Assembly (NCBI GenBank): GCA_030038655.1
Contig: JASHSP010000062.1
Span: 1 to 56,161 of the forward strand
Direction of reading: 5' to 3'
From: Thermoplasmata archaeon
Lineage (GTDB): Archaea > Thermoplasmatota > Thermoplasmata > Lutacidiplasmatales > UBA184
Length of the DNA: 56,161 bases
Below, piece by piece: positions 1,353 to 8,711 of this stretch (positions are counted from its first letter, which is position 1; each line of letters begins with the position of its first letter). The notes beneath the pieces were generated by a model. That model searched no databases. It had not been told where the DNA came from and saw only the letters and a program-made list of their open reading frames with translations. The position numbers and the translations under genes were made by a program.

Positions 1353-2354
1353 ATGGTCGGCATACGCGCCCTGAACAAAATCTGGATGGACGGCGACCTT
1401 GTCGACTGGGACGAGGCTCAGATCCATGTCCTCTCGCACGGGCTCCATTACGGCTACGCGGTCTTCGAGGGGATCCGGTGCCACCGGACGGACCGGTGGT
1501 CGGCCGTGTTCCGTCTCCCGGAGCACATCGAACGGTTCGTCAACAGCGCGAAGGTCTACCGCATGCGCCTCCCGTTCGACGCGGACGCCCTGAACCAGGG
1601 CTGCGTCGACCTGATCCGGGCCAACGGGATCCCCGAGGCCTACCTGCGACCGATCGCATTCTCCGGCTACGGCGAGATGGGGCTGGACCCGACCAAGAGC
1701 GCCGTGCACGTGGCGATCGGGATGTGGGAGTGGCCGGCCTACCTGGGGGCGGAGAACGTCGAACGGGGGGTCCGCGCGACGGTCTCGAGCTGGGTGCGCA
1801 TCGACTCTCGGTCGCTCCCGCCGCAGGCGAAATGCGCGGCCAACTACGCGAACTCGGCCCTCGCCAAGATGGAGGCCGTGAGCGGCGGATATGACGAGGC
1901 GATCCTGCTCAACTCGGCCGGCATGGTCGCGGAAGGCCCCGGCGAGAACATCTTCCGCGTGAAGAAGGGGGTCGTGAGCACCCCGCCGGCGAGCTCGGGG
2001 ATTCTCCGCGGGATCACCCGCGACAGCGTCATCCGGATCGTGAGGGACGAGGGCATCGAGTTCCAGAGGACCGATTTCACGCGGGAGGAGCTGTTCACCT
2101 CGGACGAGTTGTTCTACGCCGGCACCGCCGCAGGGATCACCCCGATCCGGGAGGTCGACGGGCGGCCGATCGGGAGCGGCACGTACCCGATCACCGGGCA
2201 CCTCCGCAAAATCTACGAGGACGCGATCCACGGACGCTCGCCGAAGTACGCGGCGTGGCTCACGCCCGTCCCGAAGGCCTCGACGGCGTCGGCGGAACCG
2301 GCCGTCAAGACCGAAATACGCCGAGGGCCGGTAGCGACTCGTTCGCGGCGCTGA
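1353..2354 (+). CDS. ilvE: Branched-chain amino acid aminotransferase
   Basis: [15 protein letters not shown] lysine in [22 protein letters not shown]. Start moved to ATG 1353 because of the TATA position. Confidence 0.93.
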
Positions 2355-3045
2355 GCGAGGCCAGGGTCCACTCCCGGAGCGACGCCGCCTGGGCCGGCGC
2401 CAGCACGGCCGCCGGCCACCCCCAGTGCACCGCCACCACGCTTCCCGGCGCGACGTCCGGAAGGACCCGCGGATCGTACGGGACCGAACTCCGGGCGGCG
2501 TCGCCCAGCGCCAGTCGGTCGCCGTCCCGCACGAGCGGGGACCGCTCGACCCGAAGGGTGTCCGGGAGGACTTCGAGGACACGCGCCCACGCCGGGCGAC
2601 ACGACTCCATGTTCTCGAGCGTCGTCGGAACGTGACCCGTGACCGTCCCGACGCCGACGAACCCCACGTGGAACATGTGGTGCGGCACCGGACGCTCGGG
2701 CAGGTGCTCGGCGAGGCGGTCCGCCGCCGATCGCGGGAGGCCCCGTCGAGTGAGAGCCATCAGAAGCGCCCGGAAGTCGGCGCGGTCGAACGGATCGAGG
2801 AGGCGGTTCCCGATCCAGTACGCCTCGACCACGTCGAAATCGAGCGGAGACTTCCCGTGCTTCCGGGCGATCGACTCAAGGTACGGCATGAGCGCCTCGA
2901 ACCCGCCGAGCGCGCGGCCGGCCGCGGCCAGGTCCTTGCCCGTCGTGATGGCCCGGTAGAGGGCCGGCGCGGCGTCGGCCGGCCCGCAGAAGTTGAGCCG
3001 GTTGGTGGCGATGCTGAACCGGGCGCCGAGCTGGACGCCGTCCAT
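2305..3045 (-). CDS. DUF6390-like protein with HypC-like C-terminal domain
   Basis: [39 protein letters not shown] 3045 lies 1 nt after the EamA gene stop. Confidence 0.75.
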
Positions 3046-3046
3046 C

Positions 3047-4006
3047 TCAGGTCGTGGACCGCCCGGCGGCGGTCGCGCGGAAGAGGGTCGCCACGTCCCG
3101 GAACAGGGAGCGACCGATGACCACCGCGACCCCACCGACCACGACCGCCGCCCCGATCGCCGCCGGGAGCGCATACCCCGTGCCGCGGATCGCGAGGGTC
3201 ATGACCCACGTGACCGGAAAGCCGAGGACCAGGACGGAGGTTGCGACCCCAAGGTCGACGCGGGCGAGTCCGGCGTACCAGGTTCCGACGAACGCCGCCA
3301 AGAGCAGGGCGCTGATGAGCACCCAGTTCCATTGGGCCCCGCTCATCGACCCGACCGACCCCCACTGCGACGTCAGGAGCAGGAACCCGACCAGGAACGC
3401 CCCGCCGAACCCCATCCGCCCGAGCGCGACGGTGGAGCTCGGCAGGTCGTGGAGCGTCCGCTTCGAGATCGTGTACTCGACCGCCCACAGGACCGTGGCC
3501 GCCAGGACGTACCCGGTGCCGGTCGTCCACAGCGGCGAGACCAGGGAGAGGAGCAGGAAGTTGCCCGCCAGCAGAAGGCCCGCGGCGACCACGACCCGGG
3601 GGTGGAAGTGCTCCCTCAGCACGACGAGCCCGAGCACCGTCGCCATGAGGAAGAGCGTGCGGTAGACGAACGAGGCGGTGGCCGCCCCGCCGGCGGCCTC
3701 GGCGAGTTGGAGTCCCCGGAAGTAGAGGAGGAACGGTATCGCGCCCCCCACGAGGCCGATCAGCGCGAGCCGTCCCCAGTCAACCCGGCGCAGCCGCAGC
3801 CGCGACCCGCGCAGGACCACGAGGGCGACCGGGGCGATCAACGCTACCACCACGAGGTTCCGGACCGTGACGAACGCGTCCGAGTTGGTCCCGGCCACCG
3901 CGTAGGAGTTCACGAAGGTCGATACACCACTGATGACCGCGGTCGCGAGCACCAGGAGCAGTCCGATCGCGCCGACCCGGCTCCCCGTGACCCCGTTCGT
4001 TGCCAT
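3047..4006 (-). CDS. EamA/DMT family transporter
   Basis: About 10 hydrophobic segments in two repeats; [26 protein letters not shown]. Confidence 0.85.
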
Positions 4007-4096: not shown

Positions 4097-4405
4097 TCAA
4101 CTCGGGGTCGGGGACGGGGCGCCCGGGGGCGATTCGCCGGTCGCCGGGGGGCCCGCGGGCACGGAGTCCGACTCGGCCAGCGCGCTCAGCTGGCCCGCGT
4201 ACTCGAGGGCCTCGAGCGCCTCCCGCTCCTCGATCTTCGACGTGGCGAACCCGGCGTGGACGATCACGTAGTCCCCCACCTCCGCCTCGGGGACGTACAC
4301 CAGATTGACCGTCTTGCGAACGCCCGAGAAATCCACCTCGGCGACCCGGGACGTCGCCCCGGGTTCGACCAGACGCACGATCCGACCGGGTATCGCAAGG
4401 CACAT
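4097..4405 (-). CDS. hypC: Hydrogenase maturation chaperone HypC
   Basis: MCLAIPGRIV N-terminus, VGDYVIVHAGFA; GGAGGA Shine-Dalgarno upstream. Confidence 0.95.
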   Translation of the reverse strand: MCLAIPGRIVRLVEPGATSRVAEVDFSGVRKTVNLVYVPEAEVGDYVIVHAGFATSKIEEREALEALEYAGQLSALAESDSVPAGPPATGESPPGAPSPTPS

Positions 4406-4472: not shown

Positions 4473-4766
4473 TCACGCGCTCGTCGGGGGGGTGCCGGAG
4501 CCCGGCTCCTCCACCACGACATCGGCCAGGACGACGTCCTGCGCCCGCGAGTCCCGGGGGTCGGGCGAGCTCTCGATCTCCAGCGCCGCGTCGCGGGCCG
4601 GCGTGTCCGCCACCAGCTCCCGCCATCGACTCCGCAGGGTCTCGGGCGAAACGTGGCAGAGCGCCCCGACACGCAACCGCACCCGGGTTATCCGGTCGAC
4701 CCTCTCGCGCCGAGCGACCTCGAGCAGCTCCCGTCGGAGGTCCCGGAGCAGGGCCTCCTCATGCAT
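4473..4766 (-). CDS. hypA: HypA-like nickel chaperone lacking the Zn-finger domain (97 aa)
   Basis: MHE nickel-binding N-terminus, RITRVRLRVGAL; no CxxC pairs. Confidence 0.8.
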   Translation of the reverse strand: MHEEALLRDLRRELLEVARRERVDRITRVRLRVGALCHVSPETLRSRWRELVADTPARDAALEIESSPDPRDSRAQDVVLADVVVEEPGSGTPPTSA

Positions 4767-5289
4767 GGCGCGCTCCGGGGCCGGAGCGGGGTTCGACGGG
4801 ACCGGCTCGGGCGATCTCGTCCGCGATCGATTCGACCACGCGATCGACGGACCGCTCGACCTCCGGGGAGAGACCGATCCCCGGGGAGAAGTCGACCCCT
4901 TCGACCCCGTACACGACCAGGAGGCCGGGGAAGCGGCCGATCGACCGCCCGAGCTGGACGGCCTCGGCCACCGAGAGGCCGTGGGTCGAGCTGGTCGGGC
5001 TCGGCGGAAAGCGGTACCCGGGCGTCGCCTCGACACGATGGATTGTTCCCGGCGGCGCCCCGGACCGCACGGCGTCGACCACGAGCACGCTCGCCTCGCC
5101 GTCCCACAGGTCGAGCAGCCCCGTGCCGTCGCCGTCGAACTCGACGGCGCGCTCCGGACGGGCCAAGGTTCGGCGAACCCGTCGGACGACCTCCGGGCCG
5201 ACCGCGTCGTCGTGCCGGTTCGAGTTGCCGACGCCGATCACGAGGGGATGCGCGCGGTCGTCACGGCCCCCTACGTGCGGCGACGCCAC
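4759..5289 (-). CDS. Hydrogenase maturation endopeptidase
   Basis: VIGVGNSNRHDDAVG, VVDAV, SSTHGL. Confidence 0.92.
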   Translation of the reverse strand: MASPHVGGRDDRAHPLVIGVGNSNRHDDAVGPEVVRRVRRTLARPERAVEFDGDGTGLLDLWDGEASVLVVDAVRSGAPPGTIHRVEATPGYRFPPSPTSSTHGLSVAEAVQLGRSIGRFPGLLVVYGVEGVDFSPGIGLSPEVERSVDRVVESIADEIARAGPVEPRSGPGARHA

Positions 5290-5299
5290 GTCCCTCCGT

Positions 5300-6595
5300 T
5301 CAGTCGCGGACGAGTTCGAGGTTCAGGAAGTGGGTGGCGCACGAGATGCACGGGTCGTGGTTCCGGATCGCCCGTTCGCAGGCGAACGTCAGCGCCTCCT
5401 GGTCGAGGTCGAGCGACCGCGCCACGAGCTCCCGGAGGTCGTCCTCGATCCGCTTCTGGTTCTGCGACGTGGGCGCGACGATGCGCGCGTCCACGATGGT
5501 CCCGGGAGGCTCGAGCCGGTACCGGTGGAACAGGATGCCACGGGGCGCCTCCGTGGTCGCCGCCCCCGAGACCGGAGCGGTGAGGGGAGGCGCGGGGACG
5601 GAGGGCGCCCCGGGGGGCCGGTACTGGTCGATGATGCGGAGCGCCTCCTCGCACGCGTAGACGATCTCGATCGCGCGCACGACGATGCTCCGGTACGGGT
5701 TCGTCACGACCGGCGGGAGCCCGAGCTCTCCGGCGACCGCCTTCGCGCGGGGGGAGAGCCGGTCGTGGTTGAGGGCATAGCGGGCCAGCGGCCCGACCAG
5801 GTACGACCCGCCGCCCTTGCGCACGGCCTGCAGCGCGTGCGAGTGCGGGACCTGGACCTCCTCGAACGCCTCCTCGAACCGGTCCTGCGGGATGCGGAGC
5901 CCGCGGCTCGAGACGAGGTCCCCCTCGTTCATCGGGTACTCCGAGGGATGGCGCAGGCTCACGAACTCGTACGGCAGCTCGAAGTCGGGAAAATCGAACC
6001 CCGCGACGAACCGGGCGGTCTCTTCGGCGAGCGCGAGGGCGGCCTCGAGGCTCGGGCGCATCCCGTCGAGCTCCTCCCGGGAAGGGCACCGGTAGAACCC
6101 GCCCACGCGGACGTTGATCGGATGGATCTCGCGGCCGCCGAGCAGCCGCATGAGCGCGTTGCCGGCCTTCTTGAGCTCGAGCCCGTGCTTCACGGCTTCC
6201 GGGTGGTGCTCGGCGAGGCGAATCGCGTCCGGATACCCGAGGAAGTCCGGGGCGTGGAGCAGGTAGATGTGCAACGCGTGGCTCTCGATCCACTCGCCGC
6301 AGTAGAGCAGCCGGCGCAGCTCCCGGATCGGTCCCTCGACCGTCATCCCGAGCGCGCGCTCCATCGCGTGGCACGCGCTCATCTGGTAGGCGACCGGGCA
6401 GATCCCGCAGATCCGCGCGGTGATATCCGGCGCCTCGGCGTACCCCCGCCCCCGGAGGAACGCCTCGAAGAACCGCGGGGGCTCGAAGATGCGCAGCTCG
6501 ACCTCCTCGACGGACCGGTCGTGGATCCGGACCCGCAGGGCGCCCTCGCCCTCGACCCGTGCGAGGTAGTTGACCGATATCGTCCGCTCGCTCAC
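5300..6595 (-). CDS. Group 3b [NiFe]-hydrogenase (sulfhydrogenase-type) large/alpha subunit
   Basis: ARVEGEG, L1 motif RICGIC, L2 motif DPCISCATH plus a cleavable C-terminal tail. GTG start overlaps the delta-subunit stop. Confidence 0.95.
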
Positions 6596-7387: not shown

Positions 7388-8251
7388 TCAGACCTCCCGC
7401 ACGGCGAGGAATCGACGGATCTCCGAGTACGGGAAGACCGGGCCGTCCCGGCAGACGAACTCGGGGCCGAACTGGCAGTGGCCGCAGATCCCCACGGCGC
7501 ACTTCATGTTGCGCTCGAGCGAGAGGAAGATCGAATCCTCCGGAACGCCCCGGGCCGTGAGCGCCTGGGCGGTGAGCTTCATCATGATCTCGGGCCCGCA
7601 CAGGAAGGCGGCGGTGTTCGGCGGGTCGAACCGCGCGTCCGGAAGGCGCGCGGTGACGAGGCCGACGTCGCCGTACCAGTCGCGGCCGGCGGTGTCGACG
7701 GTCGTCTGGAATCGGAGCCCGGGCAGCGCGCGCCAGCCCTGGATCTCCTCGTAGTAGACGAGGTCCCGGGGCGACCGGGAGCCGTAGATGATCTCGATGC
7801 GGCCGTACGCGTCGCGCTGCCGCAGCATCTCGTAGACCGCCGGGCGCAGCGGCGGGAGCCCGAGGCCGCCCGCGACGATCACCACGTCCTTCCCCCGGAC
7901 CTTCGAGAGCGGCCAGCCCGCGCCGTACGGGCCGCGCACGCCGACGGTCGACCCGCTCGTCATCTCGGTCAGGGCGTGGGTGACCTTGCCCGCGGCCCGG
8001 ACCGTGTGCACCAGGCGGTCGGGCTGCTCGGCGTCCCCGCTGATCGAGATCGCGACCTCGCCGAGGCCGAAGACGTAGACCATGTTGAACTGCCCCGGCG
8101 CGAACGGATGCGGCTCGGCCCCGGGGCCGGGCGAGAGCACGAGGGTGACCGTGTCGGGGGTCTCGCGGGTTTGGCCCCGCACCACGTACGGCATCGGCAG
8201 GATCGGCGAAGGGCCGGAGGTCGTACGGTCGCCGACGGCGTCAGCTGCCAT
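7388..8251 (-). CDS. Group 3b hydrogenase gamma subunit (FAD/NAD(P)-binding, 2Fe-2S)
   Basis: [54 protein letters not shown]. Confidence 0.95.
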
Positions 8252-8711
8252 GGACGTCCAGCAGTTGGAACTGCGTGTTCTCGAGCCGCTGCGCGATCAC
8301 GGGGAGGAGGTGCAAGAGGAACTGGAACCCGTTGGCGGGGTCCTCGTTCAGGAAGGTCCGCAGCCGGTCGGAGTCGACCGAGAACGCATGCGTCGGCTTC
8401 AGGGCGCGGGCGTCCAAGCGCCAGTGGTACGGGAAGGTGAGCCACGACCAGCCGAGCACCTCGCCCGGGCCGACGGTCTGGATCGTGAGCCGGGGTCGCT
8501 CGGGCGTCGCGACCTCCAGGGCGACCTTGCCGTCCACGATCAGGAGGAACTCGCGCGCGGGCTCGCCCTCGCGCAGGAGGAGCTCGCCGGTCTCGAACGA
8601 CCGCTCGACCGCGATACGGCTCATCGACGCCACGAGCGCCGCGGGCAGGTCCTTCACGAACGGGTGGTCGGCGAGGCGGACGCCGTCCCGGCTCGCGTGG
8701 TTGCGGTTCAT
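8241..8711 (-). CDS. Stand-alone cyclic-nucleotide-binding-fold protein (156 aa, no HTH)
   Basis: [37 protein letters not shown] overlap with the beta gene. Confidence 0.85.

Follow-up and report, generated by a model that had tools for sequence, protein, structure and literature searches.

The DNA analysed in this study (referred to below as the window) is a 56,161-nt stretch of contig JASHSP010000062.1 from the assembly of a Thermoplasmata archaeon (GCA_030038655.1). Close to one end of the window lies a minus-strand cluster of hydrogenase genes, in the order beta-type, gamma-type, small and large subunit, hycI, hypA, hypC, EamA transporter and DUF6390. The subject of this work is the last of these, the open reading frame (ORF) 2305-3045(-), whose ATG (3045-3043) is separated by one base from the stop codon TGA (3049-3047) of EamA, the gene upstream. 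Two observations on this gene are reported. Firstly, DUF6390 is a two-domain protein, in which a new all-helical domain is joined to a true homologue of the hydrogenase maturation chaperone HypC. Secondly, DUF6390 and the maturation factor HypD are mutually exclusive among genomes, and HypE and HypF are missing too from those with DUF6390, a pattern that is newly described here. The source assembly (81% complete) comprises 134 contigs with 1.5 Mb in total; the public sequencing runs listed are four DNA runs of one peat study, with no RNA run among them. Because of the high G+C content of the window (66-76% across positions 1-56161), long spurious ORFs lie over every real gene on both strands, which makes ORF lists alone unreliable for this DNA. 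The features of the cluster are collected in Table 1.

Table 1. Genes and protein domains of the hydrogenase cluster in the window, with the evidence for each.
Feature	Position	Strand	Evidence
DUF6390 gene, 246 amino acids plus stop, starts MDGVQL	2305..3045	-	ORF and translation; PF19927, E 1e-42
HypC-homologous domain of DUF6390, residues 149-246, beta barrel and C-terminal helix; C149 at 2599-2601, H207 at 2425-2427	2308..2601	-	hhalign, Foldseek
All-helical N-terminal domain of DUF6390, residues 1-148; C20 at 2986-2988, H123 at 2677-2679	2602..3045	-	predicted model
EamA/DMT-family membrane transporter, 319 amino acids, translationally coupled partner of DUF6390	3047..4006	-	PF00892, E 5.5e-26
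hypC, 102 amino acids, starts Met-Cys	4097..4405	-	PF01455, E 2.3e-25; TIGR00074, 71.9 bits
Short hypA-like gene, starts MHE	4473..4766	-	PF01155, E 4.3e-12, profile positions 1-68 of 112
Hydrogenase maturation endopeptidase, HycI/HybD type	4759..5289	-	PF01750, E 4e-12; TIGR00072, 108.5 bits
[NiFe] hydrogenase large subunit, 431 amino acids, nearest to group 3b sulfhydrogenase alpha subunits	5300..6595	-	PF00374; best NCBIfam match ShyA/HydA alpha, below cut-offs
Hydrogenase small subunit, 264 amino acids	6592..7386	-	ORF; syntenic homologues in related loci (tblastn)
Gamma-type subunit, 287 amino acids	7388..8251	-	ORF; syntenic homologues (tblastn)
Cys-rich beta-type subunit, 397 amino acids	8708..9901	-	ORF; homologues upstream of gamma in relatives

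The assignment of the ORF to DUF6390, already made in a preliminary description of this DNA, holds over the full length of the protein: PF19927 is matched with 146.8 bits (cut-off 25), residues 2-238 falling on profile positions 4-241 of 244. The same description had aligned, by eye, the C-terminal part of the protein with the HypC encoded nearby. Taken on its own this alignment is not significant, since a pairwise BLASTP of DUF6390 against the local HypC gave a best E of 3, on a different stretch; with profiles it is significant. Comparison (hhalign) of a profile of 112 diverse DUF6390 proteins, drawn from 796 cluster representatives, with 33 HypCs placed DUF6390 residues 148-230 on HypC 1-73 (95.8% probability, E 6.5e-9, 68 columns) and recovered both blocks that had been matched by eye, pairing S148-C149 with M1-C2 and VAVHWGW with VIVHAGF. 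C149 thereby falls on Cys2 of HypC and H207 on its conserved histidine (H51 in Escherichia coli, H50 in the local HypC), as had been proposed. Against the local HypC alone, the 112-member profile gave a match of 78.8% probability (E 1.7e-5), with residues 194-229 on HypC 37-72, i.e. the GDxVxxH block. The Pfam model HupF_HypC (PF01455) is matched by 42 of the 112 relatives at E <= 10 (best 4e-7); the window protein itself has no PF01455 match at E <= 10 and no NCBIfam match, and thus stays below the cut-offs of the HypC models.

The structural comparison agrees with the profiles. The AlphaFold2 model of DUF6390 (predicted local distance difference test score, pLDDT, 97.8; predicted template modelling score 0.94) consists of helices (residues 3-149), seven strands (152-215) and a long helix (217-241), that is, the C-terminal part is an OB-type barrel followed by a C-terminal helix. 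In a Foldseek search of the PDB, HypC chains of Thermococcus kodakarensis were the top three matches and 5 of the top ten, among them 2z1c_B (E 2.2e-2, prob 1.00, template modelling (TM) score on target 0.70), 3vys_A (TM 0.85) and 3vyu_A (TM 0.84, root-mean-square deviation 1.6 A). The E-values of the HypC matches are modest (about 0.02-0.09, none <= 0.001), as expected for a 70-residue domain that sits inside a 246-residue query. From rank 4 on, the remaining matches were mostly OB-fold ribosomal proteins. A PDB sequence search with the DUF6390 profile returned a chance match only (E 0.79). In place of the free N-terminal Cys2 of HypC, the aligned cysteine of DUF6390 is the internal residue 149. 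DUF6390 is therefore a HypC-domain protein, yet it lies outside the HypC family by model score, by the position of its cysteine and by architecture.

The N-terminal domain is of another kind. It is not HypD-like: PF01924 (HypD) matched none of the 112 DUF6390 proteins, the domain has no fold match in the PDB, and it holds a single conserved cysteine. Foldseek of the N-domain alone against the PDB gave no match (best E 2.6, prob 0.04), and a protein atlas search with it gave no usable one. When residues 1-148 were folded alone, pLDDT was 90.6 and the last 17 residues fell to 52-66, versus 96-98 in the full model; this loss of confidence for residues 131-147 when the C-domain is taken away suggests that the two domains pack as one unit. 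Invariant in 51 N-domains are G21, E74-W77, G79, N80 and H123. The additional N-terminal ligands suggested earlier (motifs NFCGP and PHHMFH) were upheld in part: C20 is kept in 110 and H123 in all 112 of the representatives, while H122 is kept in only 88/112 and H126 is variable, not being among the columns kept at >= 90%. The corresponding counts are 111/112 for C149 and 112/112 for H207. In DUF6390 copies translated from the loci described below, the set C-H-C-H is present in 145/146 and H207 in 146/146. The sole copy without both cysteines (L054:9992-10714, from genome G028) has W20 and A149 and keeps H123 and H207; no transporter gene adjoins DUF6390 at that locus.

The great majority of DUF6390 homologues are linked to genes for hydrogenase and its hyp factors, which answers the linkage question raised in the preliminary description. 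A [NiFe] large subunit (PF00374) was detected in 49/49 DUF6390 genomes and in 5/5 further ones tested (54/54 in total). The large subunits encoded at the loci appear intact: both RxCGxC and DPCxxC are present in 44/44 (in 41 with the usual His/Arg after the latter), and the C-terminal tail is present in 41/41 of those with the full motif. In the window protein these cysteine motifs were seen by eye in the translation, the counts having been made on the locus homologues.

As stated earlier for this DNA, hypB, hypD, hypE and hypF are all absent from the window; in the whole 81%-complete source assembly one HypC and one DUF6390 were found and no HypD. The same holds far beyond it. A HypD match was found in 3/48 and then in 0/32 DUF6390 genomes, i.e. 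in 3/80 across phyla. hypE scored over the cut-off in 2/49 and hypF likewise in 2/49, and the weaker matches to both are partial ones like those that all 14 control genomes gave as well; control genomes known to carry hyp genes were recovered by every search. One genome (G025) is unpublished; it adds one to several of the counts, and no result rests on it alone.

No DUF6390 carrier with HypD was found in either of two class-wide samples. The first comprised 251 genomes (at least 80% complete) of the class to which the window belongs, with DUF6390 in 20, HypD in 152 and the large subunit in 128; among those 128, HypD was found in 106, DUF6390 in 16, neither in 6 and both in none. The second comprised 151 genomes of a bacterial class (that of genome G048), with DUF6390 in 38, HypD in 20 and the large subunit in 64. 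These 64 were divided into 20 with HypD, 38 with DUF6390, 6 with neither (each with one weak partial match) and, again, none with both. Neither hypE nor hypF was present in the five DUF6390 genomes of this second class that were tested (0/5). Some of its DUF6390 genomes share with HypD genomes a full-length, group-1-like type of large subunit.

The same alternation is visible among close relatives of the window. Within its own family, 16 genomes carry an orthologous large subunit (68-77% identity); 14 of them carry DUF6390 and lack HypD. G260 and G294, the remaining two, lack DUF6390 and possess a hypF-hypC-hypD-hypE cluster beside a second hydrogenase. Their orthologous operon runs beta-gamma-small-large-hycI-hypA, after which no match to hypC, EamA or DUF6390 follows. 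All three of the orthologous large subunit, DUF6390 and HypD are absent from 17 further genomes of the family. DUF6390 is a variant of the HypC-type chaperone, and its either/or pattern with HypD, HypE and HypF across phyla is the surprising result of this study. Of the scaffold role proposed in the preliminary description, the HypC-type character is supported by homology, conservation and linkage; the idea of an "extra" chaperone did not stand, since DUF6390 occurs instead of HypD, HypE and HypF.

The genomic neighbourhood was surveyed with a 28-sequence DUF6390 alignment as the query, one genome per species being taken and the best 80 of at least 592 relatives being kept; regions of +/-10 kb were fetched and neighbours scored by tblastn with the window proteins. 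By their labels, the 80 loci come from Thermoplasmata, Methanosarcinales-labelled metagenome-assembled genomes (MAGs), Woesearchaeota, Nanoarchaeota, Micrarchaeia, Bathyarchaeia, Patescibacteria, Chloroflexota, Gammaproteobacteria-labelled MAGs and others. A hydrogenase large or small subunit lies within 10 kb in 55/80 loci, and hypC is present in 43/80. The picture was the same in another 80 loci, drawn independently from metagenomes.

The frequent presence of a free hypC bears on one alternative, namely that DUF6390 is an enzyme-specific HypC paralogue of the HybG/HupF sort which merely holds a precursor, the Fe(CN)2CO unit coming from unknown genes elsewhere. We regard this as improbable. 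It would agree with the HypC homology, and dedicated HypC paralogues that serve particular hydrogenases are known (available text of PMC9002611 and PMC8692609); at most loci counted above, though, a free hypC is already alongside. The paralogue explanation also leaves the extra 148-residue domain with its invariant His and near-invariant Cys, the link to transporters and the fusions to DNA-binding domains (both described below) without a reason, and the spread of the cassette over archaeal and bacterial phyla, nearly all without HypD, HypE and HypF, argues that it is self-sufficient.

The preliminary description had left out the constant partner of DUF6390, which is the gene of a membrane importer. 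In the window this is the EamA protein, with two EamA repeats (PF00892, 2 stretches), whose profile matches the DMT structures 5i20 and 7b0k and which matches the carboxylate/amino acid/amine transporter model only weakly (29 bits, cut-off 230). An EamA homologue lies within 300 bp of DUF6390 in 69/80 loci. The remaining 11 have no EamA match (two of them have less than 900 bp of flank), and at such loci another transporter, of the MFS or ABC type, usually adjoins DUF6390. In Bathyarchaeia-type loci, hypA and hypB share one strand, and the opposite strand carries hypC, DUF6390 and an MFS transporter gene in that order. An SBP_bac_5 binding protein is encoded in the Chloroflexota-type loci L075 and L092, and also in L087 behind a gene for a PadR-DUF6390 fusion; permeases were scanned in L087 and L092. 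A second ABC type occurs in L173, where the closest models are PhnS2/PhnU2, far below the family cut-offs. No substrate was assigned to the ABC binding proteins, because their scores with the Opp, NikA and CntA models are similar and all below the cut-offs. One sequence is a DUF6390-EamA fusion, which is also a single ORF in L078; being a single sequence, it could be an assembly artefact.

Several observations concern other genes of these neighbourhoods. The HypA of the window's operon type lacks the C-terminal half of the HypA model, and L009:8363-8641 is likewise short; HypA is full-length in DPANN and Bathyarchaeia loci. An ORF of L007 at the position equivalent to the beta-type subunit carries Fer4_22. 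Between the beta- and gamma-type genes of the window (8241-8700(-)), the 3' part of a long ORF resembles, by eye, a cyclic-nucleotide-binding (Crp-type) domain. An unannotated neighbour of about 125 amino acids in loci of DPANN archaea and of bacteria of the candidate phyla radiation (CPR) was considered as a new maturation factor and rejected, being a divergent HycI endopeptidase (12/13 match PF01750 at E <= 10). This minimal HycI (about 120-140 amino acids, without a Pfam match over the cut-off, with invariant G-N, D, D and H-D-x-D) is encoded beside DUF6390 or the large subunit at loci of DPANN and CPR and at some labelled as proteobacteria (L040:8703-9065, L055:10736-11113, L054:9642-9998 and 19 others). 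In some Thermoplasmata (L004:20090-20719, L030:16205-17386, G012:C26:29540-29746), EamA-DUF6390 is found near genes for 2-oxoacid:ferredoxin oxidoreductase and for a short (393 amino acids) protein resembling the large subunit, whose match to PF00374 is confined to the first ~70 positions. Loci without EamA include two with neighbours that handle iron: a rubrerythrin-like gene follows hypC-DUF6390-MFS in a Bathyarchaeia locus (L062:12031-12444), and a ferritin-like gene is convergent on DUF6390 in a Chloroflexia genome (L068:10731-11594).

DUF6390 is also found fused to DNA-binding domains of the PadR, GntR, XRE or ArsR type (P0236, P0207, P0232, P0184; L087:8001-9110). The PadR fusion has 15 cluster members on many contigs, and in L087 its gene is directly upstream of the operon for the SBP_bac_5 ABC importer, a hydrogenase gene being absent within 8 kb. 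These helix-turn-helix (HTH)-fused forms keep all four candidate ligand residues. A word-index search for longer (fused) DUF6390 forms found none, and a second "DUF6390" BLAST match in L034 (12893-13915) proved spurious (hhalign 3.6%, HTH domains only). Fusions to four kinds of HTH domain, together with three loci with enough flank (L052, L059 and L068) in which neither a transporter nor a hydrogenase gene is next to DUF6390, could indicate a small-molecule sensing or binding domain that takes no direct part in cofactor assembly, e.g. a regulator of the transporter or of hydrogenase expression. Such a role appears very unlikely to us: a DNA-binding domain is lacking in the window protein and in most of its relatives, a hydrogenase is present in all 54 genomes tested, the Cys and His of HypC are retained, and the either/or pattern with HypD would go unexplained.

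HypB was considered as the factor replaced by DUF6390 and rejected. Its model (TIGR00073) scores over the cut-off in 5/51 genomes; HypB is absent from both kinds of sister genome, including those that bear HypD, HypE and HypF, and is present beside HypC-DUF6390 in Bathyarchaeia-type loci, so DUF6390 does not track HypB. This touches on the main rival explanation, in which DUF6390 is an acceptor or sensor of nickel (or another metal): the transporter would import nickel or a chelate, DUF6390 would bind it at a Cys2His2 site and use its HypC-like domain to dock on the large subunit or on HypA, and the HTH-fused forms would be nickel-responsive regulators of the importer, in the way that NikR regulates nikABCDE. 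A transporter gene adjoins DUF6390 in nearly all loci; the SBP_bac_5 proteins of L087, L092 and L075 score alike with NikA, Opp and CntA models; the PadR fusion stands directly upstream of an ABC operon and the HTH forms keep the four ligand residues; HypB is rare, as said, and HypA is shortened. All of this would suit nickel. The missing HypD, HypE and HypF, however, are left unexplained, and a NicO- or CbiM-family Ni/Co permease is already present in 4/5 good DUF6390 genomes. The ABC binding proteins are equally indistinguishable from peptide or opine binders, DUF6390 does not follow HypB, and we know of no nickel chaperone of HypC descent. Together with the iron-branch clues described next, these points make the nickel explanation possible though unlikely in our estimate.

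Those clues come from the free HypC encoded beside DUF6390. In 57 such proteins (L003-L166), Cys2 is kept in 57/57, while the histidine is kept in 17/57 and replaced in the other 40 by Gln (23), Asn (14), Ser (2) or Ala (1); HypCs from 7 HypD-bearing genomes have it in 7/7. In the available text of the review PMC12134894, iron is held by C2 of HypC, C41 of HypD and possibly H51 of HypC, the HypC histidine is described as conserved, and exchange of the iron-holding residues abolishes activity. The histidine is often lost from HypC in DUF6390 loci, where H207 of DUF6390 is invariant, and its role seems to have moved to DUF6390. Moreover, the one double loss of cysteines in DUF6390 (W20, A149) falls in G028, the genome that bears HypD, HypE and HypF; this is one case only. 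Judged from sequence conservation, the loss of the HypC histidine and the double Cys loss in G028 point to the iron branch of cofactor assembly.

The explanation that we favour, and to which we give roughly an even chance, is that DUF6390 carries iron at a Cys2His2 site within one chain, is coupled with an importer and stands in for HypD, HypE and HypF. A metal-binding and scaffold role is suggested by the conserved residues and the HypC homology. C20 and H123 of the helical domain and C149 and H207 of the HypC-like domain would form one Cys2His2 site across the domain interface, which would be the single-chain counterpart of the HypC-HypD iron site and would hold the iron that is to become the Fe(CN)2CO part of the cofactor. 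What HypE, HypF and HypD otherwise produce would be supplied by the importer encoded alongside (EamA in the window, an MFS or ABC system in other genomes), either as a source of the ligands or as iron that already carries them. Docking on free HypC or on the large-subunit precursor, the HypC-like domain may then hand over the iron unit, after which HypA would insert nickel and the endopeptidase would trim the C-terminal tail.

A bolder reading is cofactor salvage, in which microbes with this cassette would make no Fe(CN)2CO unit of their own: the importer would take up a ready-made or partly made iron-cyanide-carbonyl compound (or a source of its ligands) released by other organisms, and DUF6390 would capture it at the Cys2His2 site and pass it on to HypC and the large subunit. 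In comparative genomics, cofactor salvage is typically marked by unrelated transporter families that interchange with one another and are anticorrelated with biosynthesis genes. Salvage of a pre-formed or partly formed iron species would agree with the link to transporters as well as with the disappearance of the biosynthetic genes; as a specific claim it is nevertheless doubtful, and is put forward tentatively.

Several points weigh against the proposal of an iron carrier that replaces HypD, HypE and HypF. DUF6390 and a HypD match do occur together in three genomes. In G008 a hypF-hypD-hypE cluster lies beside a second hydrogenase (C1:338882-343565), where the HypD match contains three in-frame TGA codons and is scattered over several frames and hypE is broken into two, which could be due to gene decay or to long-read assembly errors. 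In G028 HypD, HypE and HypF are intact, and it is the sole checked genome with all three over the cut-offs; G044 has HypD and hypE. The two class samples include 6 + 6 large-subunit-positive genomes with neither HypD nor DUF6390. The constant neighbour belongs to four unrelated transporter kinds (EamA, MFS, Opp/Nik-type ABC and PhnS2/PhnU2-like ABC), of which the Opp/Nik-type ABC fits nickel uptake as well as anything, and the HTH fusions speak more for a ligand sensor than for a scaffold. Unlike the [4Fe-4S] protein HypD, the helical domain lacks a redox-cofactor motif and has one conserved cysteine only. The chemistry is the weak point: we know of no enzyme of the cassette that makes cyanide or CO. 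Finally, most of the genomes are MAGs, the window's own being 81% complete, and related genomes are not independent observations, for which reason a Fisher test was given no weight.

A further alternative is that the hydrogenase operons of HypD-less genomes are inactive relics and that the association stems from shared descent or assembly gaps; the prevalence of MAGs and the shared gene content of related genomes would agree with it. We give this hardly any credence: ORFs and all four metal-binding cysteines are intact in 44/44 large subunits, the either/or pattern holds in genomes rated 90-100% complete and in G048 (from L081), which is labelled a complete chromosome, and it is found in two unrelated classes and several phyla.

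The pattern concerns many lineages, as 77/80 DUF6390-carrying genomes (Thermoplasmata, Bathyarchaeia, DPANN archaea, Patescibacteria, Chloroflexota and others) have no HypD match. If DUF6390 and its importer replace HypD, HypE and HypF, the Fe(CN)2CO centre would have a second route by which it is made or acquired. The grounds on which hydrogenase genes in metagenomes are called functional would then change; such a route would also reduce the gene set needed for heterologous hydrogenase production and give a direct handle on the origin of the CO ligand under anoxic conditions, a question listed as open in the available text of PMC12134894. Salvage, if true, would be the first such route for an organometallic enzyme centre and would explain [NiFe] hydrogenases without HypD, HypE and HypF in reduced-genome CPR bacteria, in DPANN archaea and in about a quarter of one sampled bacterial class. 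Even if the ligand is nickel, the missing HypD, HypE and HypF of DUF6390 genomes stay a documented open problem. A search of the main texts of open-access papers found none on DUF6390, none describing [NiFe] hydrogenases without HypD, HypE and HypF and none describing the EamA-DUF6390 pair; in their available portions, PMC9258230, PMC7886697 and PMC11216029 mention neither such hydrogenases nor this pair.

Among the known systems, HypC and its relatives HybG and HupF are the closest to DUF6390. Residues 148-230 are homologous to them, the beta barrel and C-terminal helix as well as the Cys and His are kept, and the genes lie in hydrogenase operons. The differences are that the cysteine of DUF6390 is internal (149), that a 148-residue helical domain precedes it, that the protein scores below every HypC model, that a free hypC is usually also present beside it, and that its companion in the genomes is a transporter instead of HypD. 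With the HypC-HypD complex there is an analogy only. According to the accessible part of PMC12134894, each partner of that complex contributes one cysteine (C2 and C41), possibly with H51; C149/H207 and C20/H123 of DUF6390 could do so in one chain. In contrast to HypD, the helical domain shows no likeness to it in sequence or fold, has no [4Fe-4S] motif and holds one conserved cysteine, and HypE and HypF are absent too. HoxV and HupK are extra scaffolds which, in the same source as far as available, carry Fe(CN)2CO between HypCD and the large subunit, and DUF6390 would resemble them as a protein that carries this unit. They are, however, large-subunit homologues that act downstream of HypCD, whereas DUF6390 is a HypC homologue and occurs where HypCD cannot form.

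With NikR/NikABCDE and the nickel metallochaperones, DUF6390 would share a metal-binding protein beside an importer, the hydrogenase context and the existence of DNA-binding fusions. Unlike NikR, it has neither a ribbon-helix-helix nor an ACT-like domain and its fold is HypC-like; the window protein does not have the DNA-binding plus metal-sensing architecture of NikR, HTH fusions occurring only in some distant relatives, and no nickel system is known to show a counterpart of the HypD/HypE/HypF pattern. Another likeness is to systems of cofactor salvage, since in both cases unrelated transporters swap beside the same binding protein and are anticorrelated with biosynthetic genes. To our knowledge, the salvage of an organometallic hydrogenase precursor has no described precedent. 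A parallel case of hydrogenases found without their maturation proteins is given in the available text of PMC11216029 (Cell 2024), which reports archaeal [FeFe] hydrogenases without HydEFG.

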